Part shown: piece after piece, positions 6,384 to 12,836 of the stretch | Layout of the letters: every line of letters begins with the position of its first letter | Position numbering within the stretch: the stretch's first letter is position 1 | Assembly (NCBI GenBank): GCA_031370005.1 | Contig: JANMPT010000011.1 | Coordinates: forward strand, 1-12,836 | From: Bdellovibrionales bacterium | GTDB taxonomy: Bacteria > Bdellovibrionota > Bdellovibrionia > Bdellovibrionales > Bdellovibrionaceae | Reading direction: 5' to 3' | Length of the DNA stretch: 12,836 bases | Position numbers and translations under genes: made by a program | The notes under the pieces: generated by a model | Told to the model about the DNA's origin: nothing | What the model saw: only the letters and a program-made list of their open reading frames with translations | The model's database searches: none

Positions 6384-6465
6384 AGGGTACCAGGTCGCTT
6401 TTCCGGATCAACTCAAACTAAATCAATCCATCGCGTTGCGTCCACGAAAAGCGACCTGGTACCCT
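6384..6465. repeat. Perfect 20-bp inverted repeat with 42-nt spacer (REP doublet/REPIN-like)
   Basis: AGGGTACCAGGTCGCTTTTC (6384-6403) and its exact reverse complement GAAAAGCGACCTGGTACCCT (6446-6465). Each arm is itself an imperfect palindrome. Confidence 0.85.
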
Positions 6466-7905: not shown

Positions 7906-8661
7906 TTATTTCGTCTCAGGCCTCATGCTGTATGCACTTAAAATGCCTTGATCGCGCAACCATTGAGCGGCCATGGCTGACCTTCTGCCCATGCTACAAC
8001 AAAGAACGAATTTTTTATCTACGCGCCAAAATTCTCTACTCCACTCGCCGGACATAATATCTTGATATGAAATATGAACAGCATTGGCAACGTCAACACC
8101 AAACAGTGGCTCGTGCTCTCTTTCCGCTTTGGATCGCACATCAATAAGGATACAATCACTGAGCGCATGAACTTGATCTGCCGTTAAATATAAACTCTCG
8201 TTTTTCGTTTGCCCTTGAATCCTATTTTTTTGAGCACAAAAACAGTTAGGATTCTGCTCTAAAGAAATGGACCTAAGCTTGGAATTGAAAAAATCAAAAA
8301 ACAAAACTTTTCCTTTTTGATCACTCAAGTTTCGACTTTGCCCTGCCCGAATAAGAATTATTTTTAAAACTTCAGCAGCCTGCCATGAACCAACGATTCC
8401 GACAAAAGCACCTAAAATCCCGCTTAGACTGCAATTCCCGACATCCGCAAACATCCCATGAGGATAAAAACAACGCAAACACGGGCCACCTTCACCCACA
8501 ACCATCAAGTTTGCTTCAAAACCTGTAGCTGACGCCGAAATTAAAACTTTTCTTGCTCGCAGGCAAACATCATTGAGCAGGTATTTCGATACAAAATTAT
8601 CAGTGCAATCAAGAATAATGTCATAATTTTCCAAAACACAATTTACATTTTCTGAACTCAG
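7906..8661 (-). pseudogene. moeB: 5'-truncated MoeB/ThiF adenylyltransferase with C-terminal rhodanese domain
   Basis: YDIILDCTDNF, PCLRCFYP, CSLSGILG...QAAEVLK and rhodanese LIDVRS...CCSMGRRS are present. In-frame similarity (LSSENVNCVLENYD) extends to 8661, then TAA at 8662-8664. The N-terminal GxGxxG/SNLxRQ nucleotide-binding part is absent and only 50 nt separate it from the next gene. Confidence 0.8.
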
Positions 8662-8686
8662 TTACATTTCGGCTCCGAGGGACTTC

Positions 8687-8714
8687 AAGGGAAAAAGAGT
8701 AAAAGGGACAAGAG
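8687..8714 (-). repeat. Pyrimidine-rich imperfect direct repeat immediately after the stop codon (candidate IMH/3' homing region)
   Basis: CTCTTGTCCCTT-TTA-CTCTTTTTCCCTT, with 26 of 28 nt pyrimidine. The repeat is seen directly; the IMH role is inference. Confidence 0.5.
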
Positions 8715-8849
8715 CTACTGGGCAGTCCTCACAAGGCGGAAGCCCACGTAGGAGTAACGATTACCAGGCCCCCAGATGCCACGGCCACCGGAGCGCAGGT
8801 AGGAAGCATCGTTGCCCCAGCTGCCGCCACGCATAACGCGGCTGGAGCC
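8715..8849 (-). other. Candidate DGR variable repeat (VR)
   Basis: Encodes GSSRVMRGGSWGNDASYLRSGGRGIWGPGNRYSYVGFRLVRTAQ*. Hand count gives 88/135 G+C and 16/135 A, and none of 45 codons ends in A. Most putative variable positions are NNC/NNT codons, as expected from AAC/AAT template codons. Confidence 0.75.
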
Positions 8850-11800
8850 CGTATTAGGACCTTGCGGATCAGTTCCACCAGGCAATGCACTTTGATACCA
8901 ATCATGGGTCCATTCCCACACGTTTCCATGCAAGTCGAAGAATTCCTTACCACCGATTACAAGCGGCTTCTTTTGCGCAACAGGATGAGTCTGGTTACCA
9001 GAATTTCCACTAAACCAACCGTAGTCACCAAGTTGGGACTCTTGGCTTCCGAAGTGGTAGACATCGTTTAATTGACCACGGCCCCTGATAACAAATTCCC
9101 ATTCAGCTTCTGTCGGAAGACGATAAACATCGCCCTTTTTATGACCCGGATTTAAATCCGCGAGCGTCGGTTCTCCTGCCTGAGAAAGCTCATTCAGGCC
9201 TTGGATCCATGTTTGGATGTCTTCGTAGGAAACCTGCTCCACAGGCCTTGTATCGCCCTTAAAGTTCGATGGATCTACGTTAATCTTGTACTTCGCGCCA
9301 AACTTTGCGTTTGCGAGGTCTGCCACCTTCTTCCAGATCACTTGGGTGGTTGGAGTCGCCATCATATCAAACGGTTTAGTGAGCGTGACATCGATCTGCT
9401 TTCCGACTTCGCCCATTTTAAATTTATCGGGTTCAACTCGGTGTAAGATCGCGCGATTTCCATCGATGACAGATTCTTTAATTTTCTGTTCTTGTTCTTT
9501 TCGTCTGCGAGCCTCTTCCTCTTTGGAGCGGTCATCTTGCTTGGTTTCAGTTTGCTTTTTACTTTGGAGGACTAAAATTTCCTGCTTCATCTTTTCGATC
9601 AGCTCAGCACGAGTCATAATCTTGTATTTTTCCAAGTATTCTACGAGGGCTTGCTCTTTCTTTTTAAAATCAGAGGTTAGAGCCGTGAGCTCAATCGAGC
9701 TTGTACCCTTTGATTTCGCAATATCAAGGCTGAGTCGTAAGCCCGACAGATCCTTGACTGCTTGATTGATCGATTTCTGGAGTTCAGGTGTTAAATTAGC
9801 TTTTCCAGGTGCGGGCAGACCTGCAACTTGGTTGTGAGCTTTGTCGCTAACAAACAAACTTGGAAAAAGGTCGGGATATTTCGTGATCTCCTTTTTATAC
9901 TCCTGCATAAACTCACCAATAGAAGAGTTTAAAACTTGGCTATAGTCTTTAGCCTCATCAATCATCATTTCTAGATGAAATTTCACTCTGCTGTCTACGA
10001 CTCCTGAACCAATGAGTCTTTCGATGACTTCCGACTGGTTGCTAAATTGTAGAACTCCGTCTTGACCATAAGAGGGCACTATTTTTTGCGGCGCCCAATA
10101 GCCAAGACCTTCAAAGAAAAGCCCTAAATCTTTCATCTCGATTGTGGTTCTTAAATTTTTAAATTCGACACCACTCATCAACTGATGAACGATAAACCTA
10201 GCTTTGAGTTGGTCAAAAAGTTTAATGACCGTTCGATCCGAAGCGCTGCCCGCAGCAGAAACGTAGTAATCCGGGAACTCGCGAACATCCATTTTATGCG
10301 CTCGTCTTGTTTCTTCTTCTTTCTTAACTCTTAAGGACAGGAATTTTTCATGAACTTTGGCAAGCATTTCCTTTAAAGCGGGGTTTTCAAACTCAACCTG
10401 TTTCACTAAAGGTTCAAGCTCGTGAATAGCAAGTAAGCCTTTCCAGTTGGGGGAAATCCCTTTTTCTAAATTAACTAGAAATTGAGTCAGGGCTTCCTCA
10501 CTAGATATTTTATTTGAGACATAAACTTTATTGACCGCACGGTCCATCACCGCTTCGCCCGTAGTTCGATCTTCATTATAAGAATCTAAAAATTCACTCG
10601 GCATTTTATTTGAAGTTAAAATGGCCGATCTTAAAGCCGTTTTGATCACTTGGTTTCCGGCGAAAACTTCACGCTCATTCAGAATAGAAAGAAGTGCCGT
10701 AATTGTTTGCGGATTGGCCTTATCAACCTCATCCAAAATTGCAAAAACGAATTTCTGATTTGCCAAGCTTGTTGACACTTCAATCTCTTCCTTACCTTCA
10801 TTAAGTTGTTTCTCAATCTTTGGAAAACCGATTAATACCCCTTCAGGCAAGAGTTTGTGGAATTGCAGAAGGAATCTTTCGAACTCCTGCGGTCTCTCGG
10901 TGCGAATGCGTTTTAATACCGCACGCAAGAATTTTTGATCTTTTCCGACAGACGCTATCGTGGTTCTAACAAAAGCATCCACTTGATCCGCATTTAACTT
11001 CTTAAGCTCTGATTTTAAAATGACTTCGGCCAGTGCGGTCTTCGCTCCTCCCGGAGGGCCAAAGACATAAAGATGATTATCCGATAATATTCCGGTCAAA
11101 TGTGCTTCAATCGAATGCTCAAGTTCCACAAAGCGCTGCTTCAGCGCTCGGACTTCATACCCCATCCATTCGTAATATTTAGATGCTCTTGCCTCAGCAG
11201 TTGCATTCAACATTTCTCTTCTAAATTGTCGTTTTTCTTTTTCGCTTCGAGCGGGCAACAATTTTTCTTGCGCAAGTTTTTGAGGAACTTGGTCTTTGTC
11301 AAAATGCTGATTAAGTACGTTGGCAAATTGCTCAAGGTCCTTCTTGATAGAATCAAGTTCGGCCCGTGTTCTTTCTTTAAGGGTCCCTTTTGCCAGAAGC
11401 TGATCAATTCCTTGATCAACCTCAAACTGAGGTTTTGCGAGATCAATTTTATTTGCATCAATGACAGTTTTAATTTTGGGTCCGAGAGCTGTAAAACCAC
11501 CGCTATCTACTGACCAATCTTGAAATTCTTGAGATTTCGATTTGAGAACCCATGCATTGTCTTTTTGAGTGAATATAAATTGGGTTTTACCGTTACCATC
11601 TTGAAGTAATAGTTGACCATCATAAGGGCTATATTGAACAGCCATCTCTGACGCTGTTCCATAAGGTGAGGTAACTCGAATGCCGTTTTGCACTTCTGTT
11701 ACAGGATAGGTTTTCATTCTTAAACCCGCTGGTCCCGCATACAGCGCACTCCGTGATAGTAGGCTTAAGTCTTTTCGTTGTGGAATCAGGCGCATTTGAT

Positions 11801-12836
11801 CAAAAGGAACGCCGTCCATAAGTTGTTTTGCGATCAGCGCTGATTTGAAAATCTGCACGAGGCGTCTGACAGAACGATTTGAAAATTGATTGGCCGGAAA
11901 ATATTCGCTCTCGGCTTCTCCGTATCTCACGGCGGTCCGTGACTGATCCGCCTTCTTGGTCACGTAACGATCAAACTCGCGGGCTATCGATACGATCTCT
12001 GCCATCATGTCATCAGGGATCTTAACCTTGGCGACCAAGACCTCCAGGTCTCTCAGTGGAAGGCTGATTTTTAATTTCTCAGGATTTTTCACCAGATCAT
12101 ACATGGCCACAGTTTCTTTGGGGCTCATCTGTTGATTTGGTATATGGATTTTAATTGCCATCCGATCAAGAAGGGCTTCGCCTGATGGACGGTCATTTAA
12201 GAAACCCTGAATAAATTCGCCAGTCGTTTTGTTGGATGTGAACACGCCGCTTGATAAAATACTGTCAACGACCTTAGCTCCTAAAAATGCTTTTCTTTCA
12301 TTCAGCACGGAAAGAAGTGCGTTCAGGACCGCCGGGTTTGATTTTTCCGCTTCATCGGCAATTAAGAATAAAAACCTATCACCAACAAGAGACGACTCTG
12401 TTTCGATCTCATACTTTCCGTCTTTCATCATTGATGAGAATTTCTGAAATCCAGAAATTTTTCCCTCAGATATCAATTTATGAAACTGAAGAACGAATAC
12501 TTTTTTATCTTTTTCTGGAATTGAGTTTAAAACCGATTGGAACATGAGTCGTGATAAAAAGGTTTTAGCTCCGCCGGGCTCACCATTAATCCAGACAAAT
12601 TCTTTAGCTAAAATTGCTGTCGTCAATGCTTCAATAACTTGACTTCGTCCATACACCTTTTGATCAATTTGTTTTAAGGCAGTAACCGATTCTGTCCAAG
12701 CTTCCGAAGGCGTCTTTATTTGAACCGAAGTTGCAACAACCCCTGCGTGACTGAATATTTCTGAGCACTTATTCGCAGCCGATGCGACCGGAGATTCAAG
12801 AATGAGTAGGGATAGGAAAGTCCCTACTAATAATAT
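8715..12836 (-). CDS. Secreted tandem RavA/MoxR-like AAA+ ATPase with coiled coil and C-terminal FGE-sulfatase (CLec-fold) domain; start lies just beyond the window edge
   Basis: Frame stays open upstream of GTG 12656 to base 12836 (ILLVGTFLSLLILESPVASA-ANKCSEIF). Walker A GEPGGAKT (12561-12584) and GPPGGAKT (11037-11060). Walker B IADEAEK and ILDEVDK, followed by LLSVLNER/LLSILNER, TSNK and EALLDR/EAVMDR. C-terminal domain has YRLPTEAEWEF, FDLHGNVWEW, RVMRGGSW and VGFRLV. Confidence 0.9.
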   Translation of the reverse strand: MLLVGTFLSLLILESPVASAANKCSEIFSHAGVVATSVQIKTPSEAWTESVTALKQIDQKVYGRSQVIEALTTAILAKEFVWINGEPGGAKTFLSRLMFQSVLNSIPEKDKKVFVLQFHKLISEGKISGFQKFSSMMKDGKYEIETESSLVGDRFLFLIADEAEKSNPAVLNALLSVLNERKAFLGAKVVDSILSSGVFTSNKTTGEFIQGFLNDRPSGEALLDRMAIKIHIPNQQMSPKETVAMYDLVKNPEKLKISLPLRDLEVLVAKVKIPDDMMAEIVSIAREFDRYVTKKADQSRTAVRYGEAESEYFPANQFSNRSVRRLVQIFKSALIAKQLMDGVPFDQMRLIPQRKDLSLLSRSALYAGPAGLRMKTYPVTEVQNGIRVTSPYGTASEMAVQYSPYDGQLLLQDGNGKTQFIFTQKDNAWVLKSKSQEFQDWSVDSGGFTALGPKIKTVIDANKIDLAKPQFEVDQGIDQLLAKGTLKERTRAELDSIKKDLEQFANVLNQHFDKDQVPQKLAQEKLLPARSEKEKRQFRREMLNATAEARASKYYEWMGYEVRALKQRFVELEHSIEAHLTGILSDNHLYVFGPPGGAKTALAEVILKSELKKLNADQVDAFVRTTIASVGKDQKFLRAVLKRIRTERPQEFERFLLQFHKLLPEGVLIGFPKIEKQLNEGKEEIEVSTSLANQKFVFAILDEVDKANPQTITALLSILNEREVFAGNQVIKTALRSAILTSNKMPSEFLDSYNEDRTTGEAVMDRAVNKVYVSNKISSEEALTQFLVNLEKGISPNWKGLLAIHELEPLVKQVEFENPALKEMLAKVHEKFLSLRVKKEEETRRAHKMDVREFPDYYVSAAGSASDRTVIKLFDQLKARFIVHQLMSGVEFKNLRTTIEMKDLGLFFEGLGYWAPQKIVPSYGQDGVLQFSNQSEVIERLIGSGVVDSRVKFHLEMMIDEAKDYSQVLNSSIGEFMQEYKKEITKYPDLFPSLFVSDKAHNQVAGLPAPGKANLTPELQKSINQAVKDLSGLRLSLDIAKSKGTSSIELTALTSDFKKKEQALVEYLEKYKIMTRAELIEKMKQEILVLQSKKQTETKQDDRSKEEEARRRKEQEQKIKESVIDGNRAILHRVEPDKFKMGEVGKQIDVTLTKPFDMMATPTTQVIWKKVADLANAKFGAKYKINVDPSNFKGDTRPVEQVSYEDIQTWIQGLNELSQAGEPTLADLNPGHKKGDVYRLPTEAEWEFVIRGRGQLNDVYHFGSQESQLGDYGWFSGNSGNQTHPVAQKKPLVIGGKEFFDLHGNVWEWTHDWYQSALPGGTDPQGPNTGSSRVMRGGSWGNDASYLRSGGRGIWGPGNRYSYVGFRLVRTAQ

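Follow-up and report, generated by a model that had tools for sequence, protein, structure and literature searches.

The window, by which we mean the whole 12,836-nucleotide stretch of DNA analysed here, most likely carries a former in-cassette DGR target whose core genes have been deleted, leaving a single variant of its variable repeat (VR) frozen. It is the entire contig C107 of the host assembly G000 (3.2 Mb, 123 contigs, 99.79% complete by markers). The target gene leads from a signal-peptide-like end with a conserved cysteine through two MoxR/RavA-type AAA domains and a linker to an FGE-type C-lectin (CLec) domain, at the end of which the VR is found (Table 1). In a working DGR, RT and Avd copy the RNA of a template repeat (TR) with errors at adenines, and the resulting cDNA replaces the VR starting from the IMH.

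Table 1. Features of the target gene and of its downstream junction, in window coordinates
Feature	Position	Strand	Remarks
Headless moeB/moeZ (ThiF + rhodanese) remnant	7906..8661	-	begins at the break point
Pyrimidine tract and left arm (5' part) of the conserved hairpin 3' of the gene	8659..8714	-	homology to intact cassettes
DGR target gene	8715..12836	-	runs off the window edge; 1,373 codons inside the window
Variable repeat (VR), 126 nt homologous to TRs of relatives	8725-8850	-	ends 3' in the IMH
FGE-sulfatase-like C-type lectin (CLec) domain	8727..9392	-	Pfam and structure-sequence match
MoxR-type AAA domain 2 core, about residues 581-767	10536..11096	-	
MoxR-type AAA domain 1 core, residues 52-236	12129..12683	-	
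Hydrophobic stretch, AxA-type cleavage site and Cys24 (C-x-x-I-F)	12753..12836	-	by eye and hydropathy

The last 45 codons of the gene (8715-8849, minus strand; 44 sense codons and TAG) have a composition of their own. GC is 65.2% and A 11.9%, against 42.7% and 31.9% in the remainder of the frame, and none of the 45 codons ends in A, compared with 30.8% elsewhere; these recomputed values reproduce those of the first-pass annotation (GC about 65%, A about 12%, no A-ending codon in the last 45). The uninterrupted stretch of sense codons not ending in A is 48 long, and all other 45-codon spans of the gene contain at least five A-ending codons. Among the 1,386 stop-to-stop frames of at least 300 aa in G000, eight have two or fewer A-ending codons in the last 44, and zero is reached by two of them, the target and a frame on C101 with 73% GC. 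Such a shift could also stem from a Gly/Arg-rich terminus conserved in ordinary FGE-family domains, with no DGR involved, as the RGGSW...GFR end is common to FGE-family proteins. However, on C54 the last 45 codons of a housekeeping FGE-family gene include 11 that end in A, at a GC content of 39%, and the mismatches of the window segment to real TRs cluster at adenines, so this reading is already refuted and its probability is practically negligible.

The TRs come from relatives. At locus L106 an orthologue, with an AAA part 88% and a lectin 84% identical to those of the window gene, sits in a cassette ordered target, hairpin, HRDC, avd, RT and TR, with Avd scoring above the NCBIfam DGR-Avd cut-off. 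The L106 TR differs from the window VR at 22 of 126 positions, 16 of which are TR adenines, and the TR of genome G034 at 23, again with 16 at adenines (Fisher p 2e-7), adenine making up 24% of the TR. The six non-adenine mismatches to the L106 TR consist of one IMH/IMH* site (8727 is G as opposed to C in the TRs of L106 and G034, whose own VRs likewise have G) and five third codon positions. Since VR/TR pairs from the same genome show 1-3 non-adenine mismatches in 15 cases and 6 in one, the L106 TR, like that of G034, is a sister of the cognate TR and not the cognate itself. Between the window and L106 the VR diverges by 17, 14 and 12% at codon positions 1, 2 and 3, versus 12-23, 7-11 and 54-61% in the remaining gene; the low third-position divergence in the VR is expected if related TRs overwrote it repeatedly. 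By our computation the L106 TR would vary 15 codons, corresponding to about 8e15 protein variants.

Diversification can be followed directly in close pairs. Genomes G126 and G254 show zero differences across ~7,930 nt upstream of the VR, 16 within it (15 at TR adenines) and 8 downstream. The assembled run X19 contains a 97%-identical orthologue of the window gene (22 differences per 778 bases) with two VR alleles, which carry 19 and 18 differences within 134 nt and are seen as a bubble at depth ~5. Among the differences listed, all 11 of the 11 VR positions are TR adenines, and 15 of the 18 upstream of the VR, counted against the window, fall at third codon positions; the target gene is under purifying selection between the window and X19 lineages. 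The adenine-mutagenesis (DGR) footprint proposed in the first pass is thus strongly supported by the TRs of relatives and by the adenine-specific differences, and 8725-8850 is a genuine DGR variable repeat. Some details of that proposal need to be adjusted. Of its segment 8715..8849, the 10 last bases lie outside the TR homology and the remainder falls within the VR; in its list of adenine-derived codons the TCC of 'tcc tac' (residue 1345) belongs to the scaffold and is not derived from AAC, and two variable codons were overlooked (ATA>ATG at 1335 and AGG>GGG at 1356). The TR core that it predicted agrees with the real L106 TR except at three third-codon positions.

Two side observations concern these cassettes. 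The G126 and G254 loci (L282 and L283) are 99.7% identical across 9.3 kb, and their genomes are assigned to different families; the identity may reflect recent transfer or a binning error. The TR of L252 (G216:C2) has TAG where others have TGG and fits the neighbouring VR poorly without gaps; it is possibly a decaying cassette.

Downstream of the target, the sequence can be aligned with intact cassettes for 59 bases beyond the stop codon, up to position 8659 within the left arm of the conserved hairpin; at exactly this base the X19 contig diverges from the window and runs on into a full hairpin. In intact relatives the hairpin lies ~45 bases past the IMH and has an outer stem of ~17-24 bp, an inner GC-rich stem and a GAA-type loop; its position suggests a role in homing. 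On folding, intact hairpins reach z-scores of -4.3 to -6.1, while the window flank gives +0.6, the weakest among 59 VR flanks. The arrangement resembles the BPP-1 target site, where, according to the accessible part of PMC3240598, an IMH at the VR end is likewise followed by an inverted repeat. BPP-1-type stems measure 7-10 bp, carry a GRNA loop of 4 nt and lie 4-34 bp from the VR, and in BPP-1 the stem is needed for efficient homing. Loss of the hairpin alone is no proof of inactivity, since the VR of G193 is still matched to its TR despite a deleted hairpin. As a separate observation, the hairpin is deleted or cut at varied points at L075, L076, L087, L008, L080 and L069, with the core sometimes retained, and it may be a deletion hot spot.

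On the other side of the break point begins the moeB remnant, which lacks about the first 100 profile positions. Its front half was not found elsewhere in G000, where the other matches are different ThiF-family genes at no more than 34%; a simple insertion of the cassette into moeB, which would predict such a front half, is not supported. MoaE was not found in G000 either. The simplest history would be a deletion from the hairpin into moeB, which would have removed the core along with the moeB front and the remaining hairpin. Since no relative has a cassette adjoining moeB, the pre-deletion arrangement is a reconstruction. The closest moeB relative, L097 (G113:C27:326508-330089), is 65% identical across the first part and is itself frameshifted. 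Near-identical pieces of the target gene are present in runs X2 and X3, too fragmented for the 3' flank to be read, and the lack of cover of moeB in X2, X3 and X19 carries no weight as evidence.

Strong hairpins and VR bubbles break assemblies and the other end of the window is also a break point, so one may ask if the hairpin led the assembly to a false join at 8659, with the real gene followed by a core. This deserves very little credence, as a separately assembled contig from the likely source run X1 crosses the junction with zero differences and no listed joint, and the core is missing from all 123 contigs of the assembly.

The core was sought in the host in several ways. RT was not found in G000 with Pfam RVT_1, with tblastn using two clade RTs, in a search with the L106 RT or with an HMM built from 25 clade RTs (E-value limit 10); no Avd was found there, and the only HRDC match is one of 61 aa and 43% on C3. 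An adenine-tolerant scan detected no TR in G000, and nhmmer with 18 TRs matched three VR ends only, in the window, on C76 and on C5. In X1 one depth-10 contig covers 8000-9600 with zero differences (contigs only, from which rare variants drop out), and ~86% of the run contained no TR-like contig at depth 10 and no VR bubble, the VR being touched by short pieces of depth 2-3 only. A core on an unbinned contig could be missed, given the 123 contigs and the fact that completeness counts marker genes.

These results bear on the first-pass annotation, which had seen no second copy, RT or avd in the window, as our window search also finds, and had called the gene a probable remote target. The search of the genome that it suggested, for a TR copy beside an RT, found none in G000 but revealed the two additional VR ends. 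The idea that an unassembled or unbinned core still rewrites the VR in trans was reasonable, since true remote targets occur in this DGR clade: in G338 the VR is ~600 kb from the TR, with 13 of 14 mismatches at A, and further examples are found in G278 (21 of 22) and G034 (12 of 14). The VR scaffold also remains close to a living TR, and the assembly is fragmented and holds the VR ends on C76 and C5. We nevertheless consider an active remote target unlikely. Besides the missing RT, Avd and TR, neither a TR-like piece at depth 10 nor a VR bubble was seen in ~86% of the likely source run, whereas the X19 bubble could be seen at about half that depth; the hairpin is cut, and in BPP-1 the loss of the stem brings homing near to background, as the accessible part of PMC3240598 has it. 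One hidden core would also not explain both VRs, because the VR on C76 is of another TR type. Finally, the gene in relatives is an in-cassette target, and it is a deleted cassette, not a remote target, that we prefer for the window.

The two other VR ends are relics worth describing. C76:2819-3223 (L297) is a second orphan CLec target, truncated by the contig end, with an intact hairpin and no core behind it; its VR has 20 adenine and 10 other mismatches to the G169 TR, and it is followed by a RelE-like/HTH pair and a nucleotidyltransferase-like gene (named by eye). C5:757-900 retains the 3' end of a VR with a stop, a pyrimidine tract and remnants of a hairpin-like element, and upstream of these there is no lectin frame.

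Pfam recognises bpMoxR/AAA_5 domains in the target protein and FGE-sulfatase at its C-terminus (residues 1149-1370). In the first AAA domain we identified Walker A at 85, Walker B at 157-162, the sensor at 200 and the arginine finger at 225, and in the second Walker A at 593, Walker B at 698-703, the sensor at 741 and the arginine finger at 766; when the window protein was aligned with 33 of the 65 homologues, the motifs of both domains proved invariant. The nearest solved structure to domain 1 is RavA (E 1.5e-7), which is also the top NCBIfam match, far under the family cut-off, and the ESM Atlas returned nothing beyond generic MoxR/AAA_5 clusters for the protein. Cys24 is invariant in 34 of 34 aligned rows, and a hydrophobic signal-like N-terminus followed by a conserved cysteine is present in 54 of the 65 homologues (by eye and a loose pattern). 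It is also the sole cysteine of the target protein; the CLec domain has none, and a CLec without catalytic cysteines is not an FGE enzyme. The nearest solved relative of the CLec domain is the DGR variable protein TvpA (2Y3C, E 3.8e-24), to whose end the VR aligns in a comparison of sequences. A structure prediction of the domain from 13 sequences (pLDDT 52.7, VR below 50) was discarded. The 65 homologues of the N-terminal 1,120 residues divide into 34 with an FGE domain and 31 without, and the six of them that carry a taxon name belong to Bdellovibrionales, Oligoflexia or Bdellovibrionota, as do the nearest genome records with a name. The host would therefore be a Bdellovibrio-like bacterium.

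The target ATG is found on another contig, C113 (18380), which shares 23 bases (12814-12836) with the window end. C113 also carries a divergent gene of 1,212 aa beside the target start, whose L106 orthologue has transglutaminase-like and vWA domains, with the Cys, His and Asp of the transglutaminase-like domain in the expected order (by eye). The divergent target/vWA pair recurs at every orthologous locus long enough to reveal both genes, and both proteins have signal-peptide-like N-termini. Across 12 flanks compared beyond the vWA gene there is no third conserved component (VMAP, iSTAND, FtsH or beta-propeller) and no shared gene, one short pair excepted; on the downstream side of the target lies either the DGR core or unrelated DNA. 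With flanks so little shared, the vWA-AAA-CLec module has the character of an island. Possibly the second AAA domain takes the place of the missing third component of a conflict system.

Several observations were made around these genes. On C113 (18380-19896, L295) the target ATG and first 17 codons are followed by a 1,467-bp IS3-family-like element, scoring just below the NCBIfam cut-off, and the 23 bases at 12814-12836 of the window represent the uninterrupted allele, without the element. The far flank of the element resembles C61:29997 onward at 98%. This suggests a mixed population, or an IS-driven rearrangement disabling the target gene in some cells. The C-x-x-L/I-F motif after the signal peptide is found in the whole tandem-AAA family (P0001-P0065), in the vWA partner and in the G034 target; a near-identical peptide closes the C-terminus of a Clp-like protein upstream in G034 (L022:154-4455), and G000 proteins on C70, C105, C108 and C120 were also listed with it. 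It is possibly a sorting tag. Genome-wide, and by a crude signal-peptide rule, the motif is not enriched after the signal at the N-terminus (7 of 734, against 1-8 in control windows) or at the C-terminus (8 of 861, against 1-8). Elsewhere in the window, 1-1413 on the minus strand encodes a signal-peptide protein truncated by the window edge, without a Pfam match, which we take to resemble Bdellovibrio fibre-like adhesin proteins, and a perfect 20-bp inverted repeat with a 42-base spacer (6384-6403 and 6446-6465) lies between DUF3299 and DUF308 genes.

Across the 384 genomes of the order, the AAA part has matches in 27 and close orthologues in 16, none of the latter among the six from the same genus, and RTs at least 50% identical to that of L106 are present in 18 of the 384 (38 matched). 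Sixteen AAA-CLec loci have a readable 3' flank, not counting L107, which is cut short of its VR end, and the frameshifted L161. Core genes are present in cis at five of them (L106, L110, L113 and the nearly identical G126 and G254). At two HRDC is cut, by an IS in G169, with RT and TR on another contig, and in G166, where RT was not found. Eight have no core: the window, G099, G098, G137 and G100, plus three copies that all lie on a single metagenome contig. One locus is terminated by a contig edge. The break points past the stop differ, from within ~20 bases in G098 and G137 to +59 in the window and ~+89 in G099. In the AAA tree (16 rows; L293 excluded as too short) core-less and core-bearing loci are interleaved across several clades, and since the position of the window is weakly supported, the tree does not fix the number of independent losses. 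A FastTree tree of the CLec domains gave long-branch warnings and was set aside.

With so patchy a module, unshared flanks and no cassette beside moeB in any relative, it can also be proposed that the module was coreless when it was transferred horizontally and that it entered moeB at the cost of the front of that gene, so that mutagenesis never ran in this host. Transfer and deletion in place look alike in the present data, and the VR is a frozen leftover either way; the 97%-identical X19 orthologue with its intact hairpin shows only that the loss is recent. We regard such a transfer as quite improbable and retain deletion of the core in place as the preferred history.

The cores themselves are found on various targets. 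In G034 (L022:4459-10043, G034:C6) the target is a 1,056-aa signal-peptide protein with an unrelated N-terminus and a lectin 44% identical to that of the window. The HRDC, Avd and RT of this locus share 93-99% identity with their L106 counterparts (RT 96-97%), and the nucleotide identity climbs at the VR boundary; other loci display yet other N-termini. Judging from these sequence comparisons, the DGR core is modular and grafted at the VR boundary onto unrelated targets. A phage origin was considered and rejected, as viral contigs gave distant lectins only (31-36%) and there were no phage genes at the inspected loci. At L111/L021 (G034:C7), L290 (G236:C420), L034-L036 (G027) and L025-L026 (G020:C66), 5-7 or more CLec genes stand in tandem, their VRs decayed, and some of these arrays adjoin a tandem AAA gene without a lectin. 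They are apparent archives of old variants.

The closest parallels come from known DGRs and from MoxR-vWA systems. The T. denticola HRDC-type DGR (TvpA; Architecture C in PMC5758913, which in its accessible part also catalogues remote targets and the HRDC architecture) has a TvpA-type CLec with a C-terminal VR and signal-bearing targets, and HRDC is an accessory gene in the cassettes of our relatives as well. Differences lie in the host group, in the order target-hairpin-HRDC-avd-RT-TR with both HRDC and avd present, and in the target, which instead of a small lipoprotein is here a tandem ATPase fusion of 1,380 aa bearing a signal of the AxA type. Leftover target genes in T. denticola strains without RT and TR are described in the accessible part of PMC4891356; unlike those, the window retains a visible break point of the loss. 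For Nostoc, removal of the diversification parts after a good variant had arisen was suggested (PMC7517822, in the portion available).

DGR-varied lectins in MoxR-vWA systems are known from PMC7159879 (Kaur et al.) and PMC10907252 (Dore et al.). A MoxR-type ATPase (Pfam bpMoxR), an adjacent vWA protein, a peptidase-like domain and a DGR-varied CLec are common to these ternary conflict systems and our module. However, in the accessible parts of these papers the CLec is on the vWA protein or an uncharacterised extension, with MoxR separate, while here it is on a doubled MoxR. Moreover, no VMAP, iSTAND or beta-propeller gene was seen at our loci, the two genes are divergent with signal-peptide-like N-termini, and the host group consists of unicellular predators and not multicellular bacteria. 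The E. coli MoxR-vWA pair RavA-ViaA is similar in that AAA domain 1 best matches RavA, and differs from the target in having no second AAA domain per chain, signal peptide or C-terminal CLec; the target in turn has no LARA-type match. In the literature searched, with subscription papers largely outside it, we found no report of a DGR in Bdellovibrio, Bdellovibrionota or Bdellovibrionales. The word 'Bdellovibrio' is absent from the texts of PMC7159879 and PMC10907252, the DGR term appears in PMC10769870 in one reference only, and PMC11656739 contains none of the relevant terms. The supplementary catalogues of PMC8144416 and PMC5758913 may already list these cassettes. The VR and its orphaned state are of known kinds, and what appears new is the host group and the target architecture, a lectin on a tandem MoxR with a transglutaminase-vWA partner.

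What would such a protein do? Signal-like N-termini on both proteins together with intact ATPase motifs suggest work outside the cytoplasm of the producer, possibly in prey, or a membrane anchor. The periplasm contains no ATP, and MoxR ATPases act with vWA partners. We infer an exported or membrane-anchored two-domain MoxR ATPase with a variable lectin tip, which would be paired with the transglutaminase-like/vWA protein. The lectin tip would choose the ligand, and the doubled MoxR with its vWA partner would remodel the target or release the transglutaminase-like domain. With the core lost, mutagenesis would stop and the last VR variant would be fixed, the target gene itself being kept under purifying selection. 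Recognition or attack of prey or competitors has about an even chance of being the role; phage defence, about half as probable, and another surface function are both less likely. A more elaborate and rather doubtful scheme may be put forward tentatively: in Bdellovibrionales predators a mobile DGR core, joined at the VR boundary to various lectin genes, would retune the binding tip of secreted enzymes, the MoxR-MoxR/vWA/transglutaminase pair would reach an ATP-containing compartment of the prey by means of its signal peptide and C-x-x-L/I-F tag, and repeated deletion of hairpin or core would lock the variant, so that prey specificity is first tuned and then frozen.

At a practical level the case is a warning that VR signatures without RT are often relics and not remote targets. 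The intact cassettes, cut HRDC genes, cut hairpins and core-less loci form a natural on/off series in which selection can be weighed against decay in the loss of the core. This DGR clade is present in at least 18 of the 384 genomes of a predatory order, and for the question of how prey range is set in Bdellovibrio-like predators, a hypermutated and predicted exported binder would be a direct, testable candidate.
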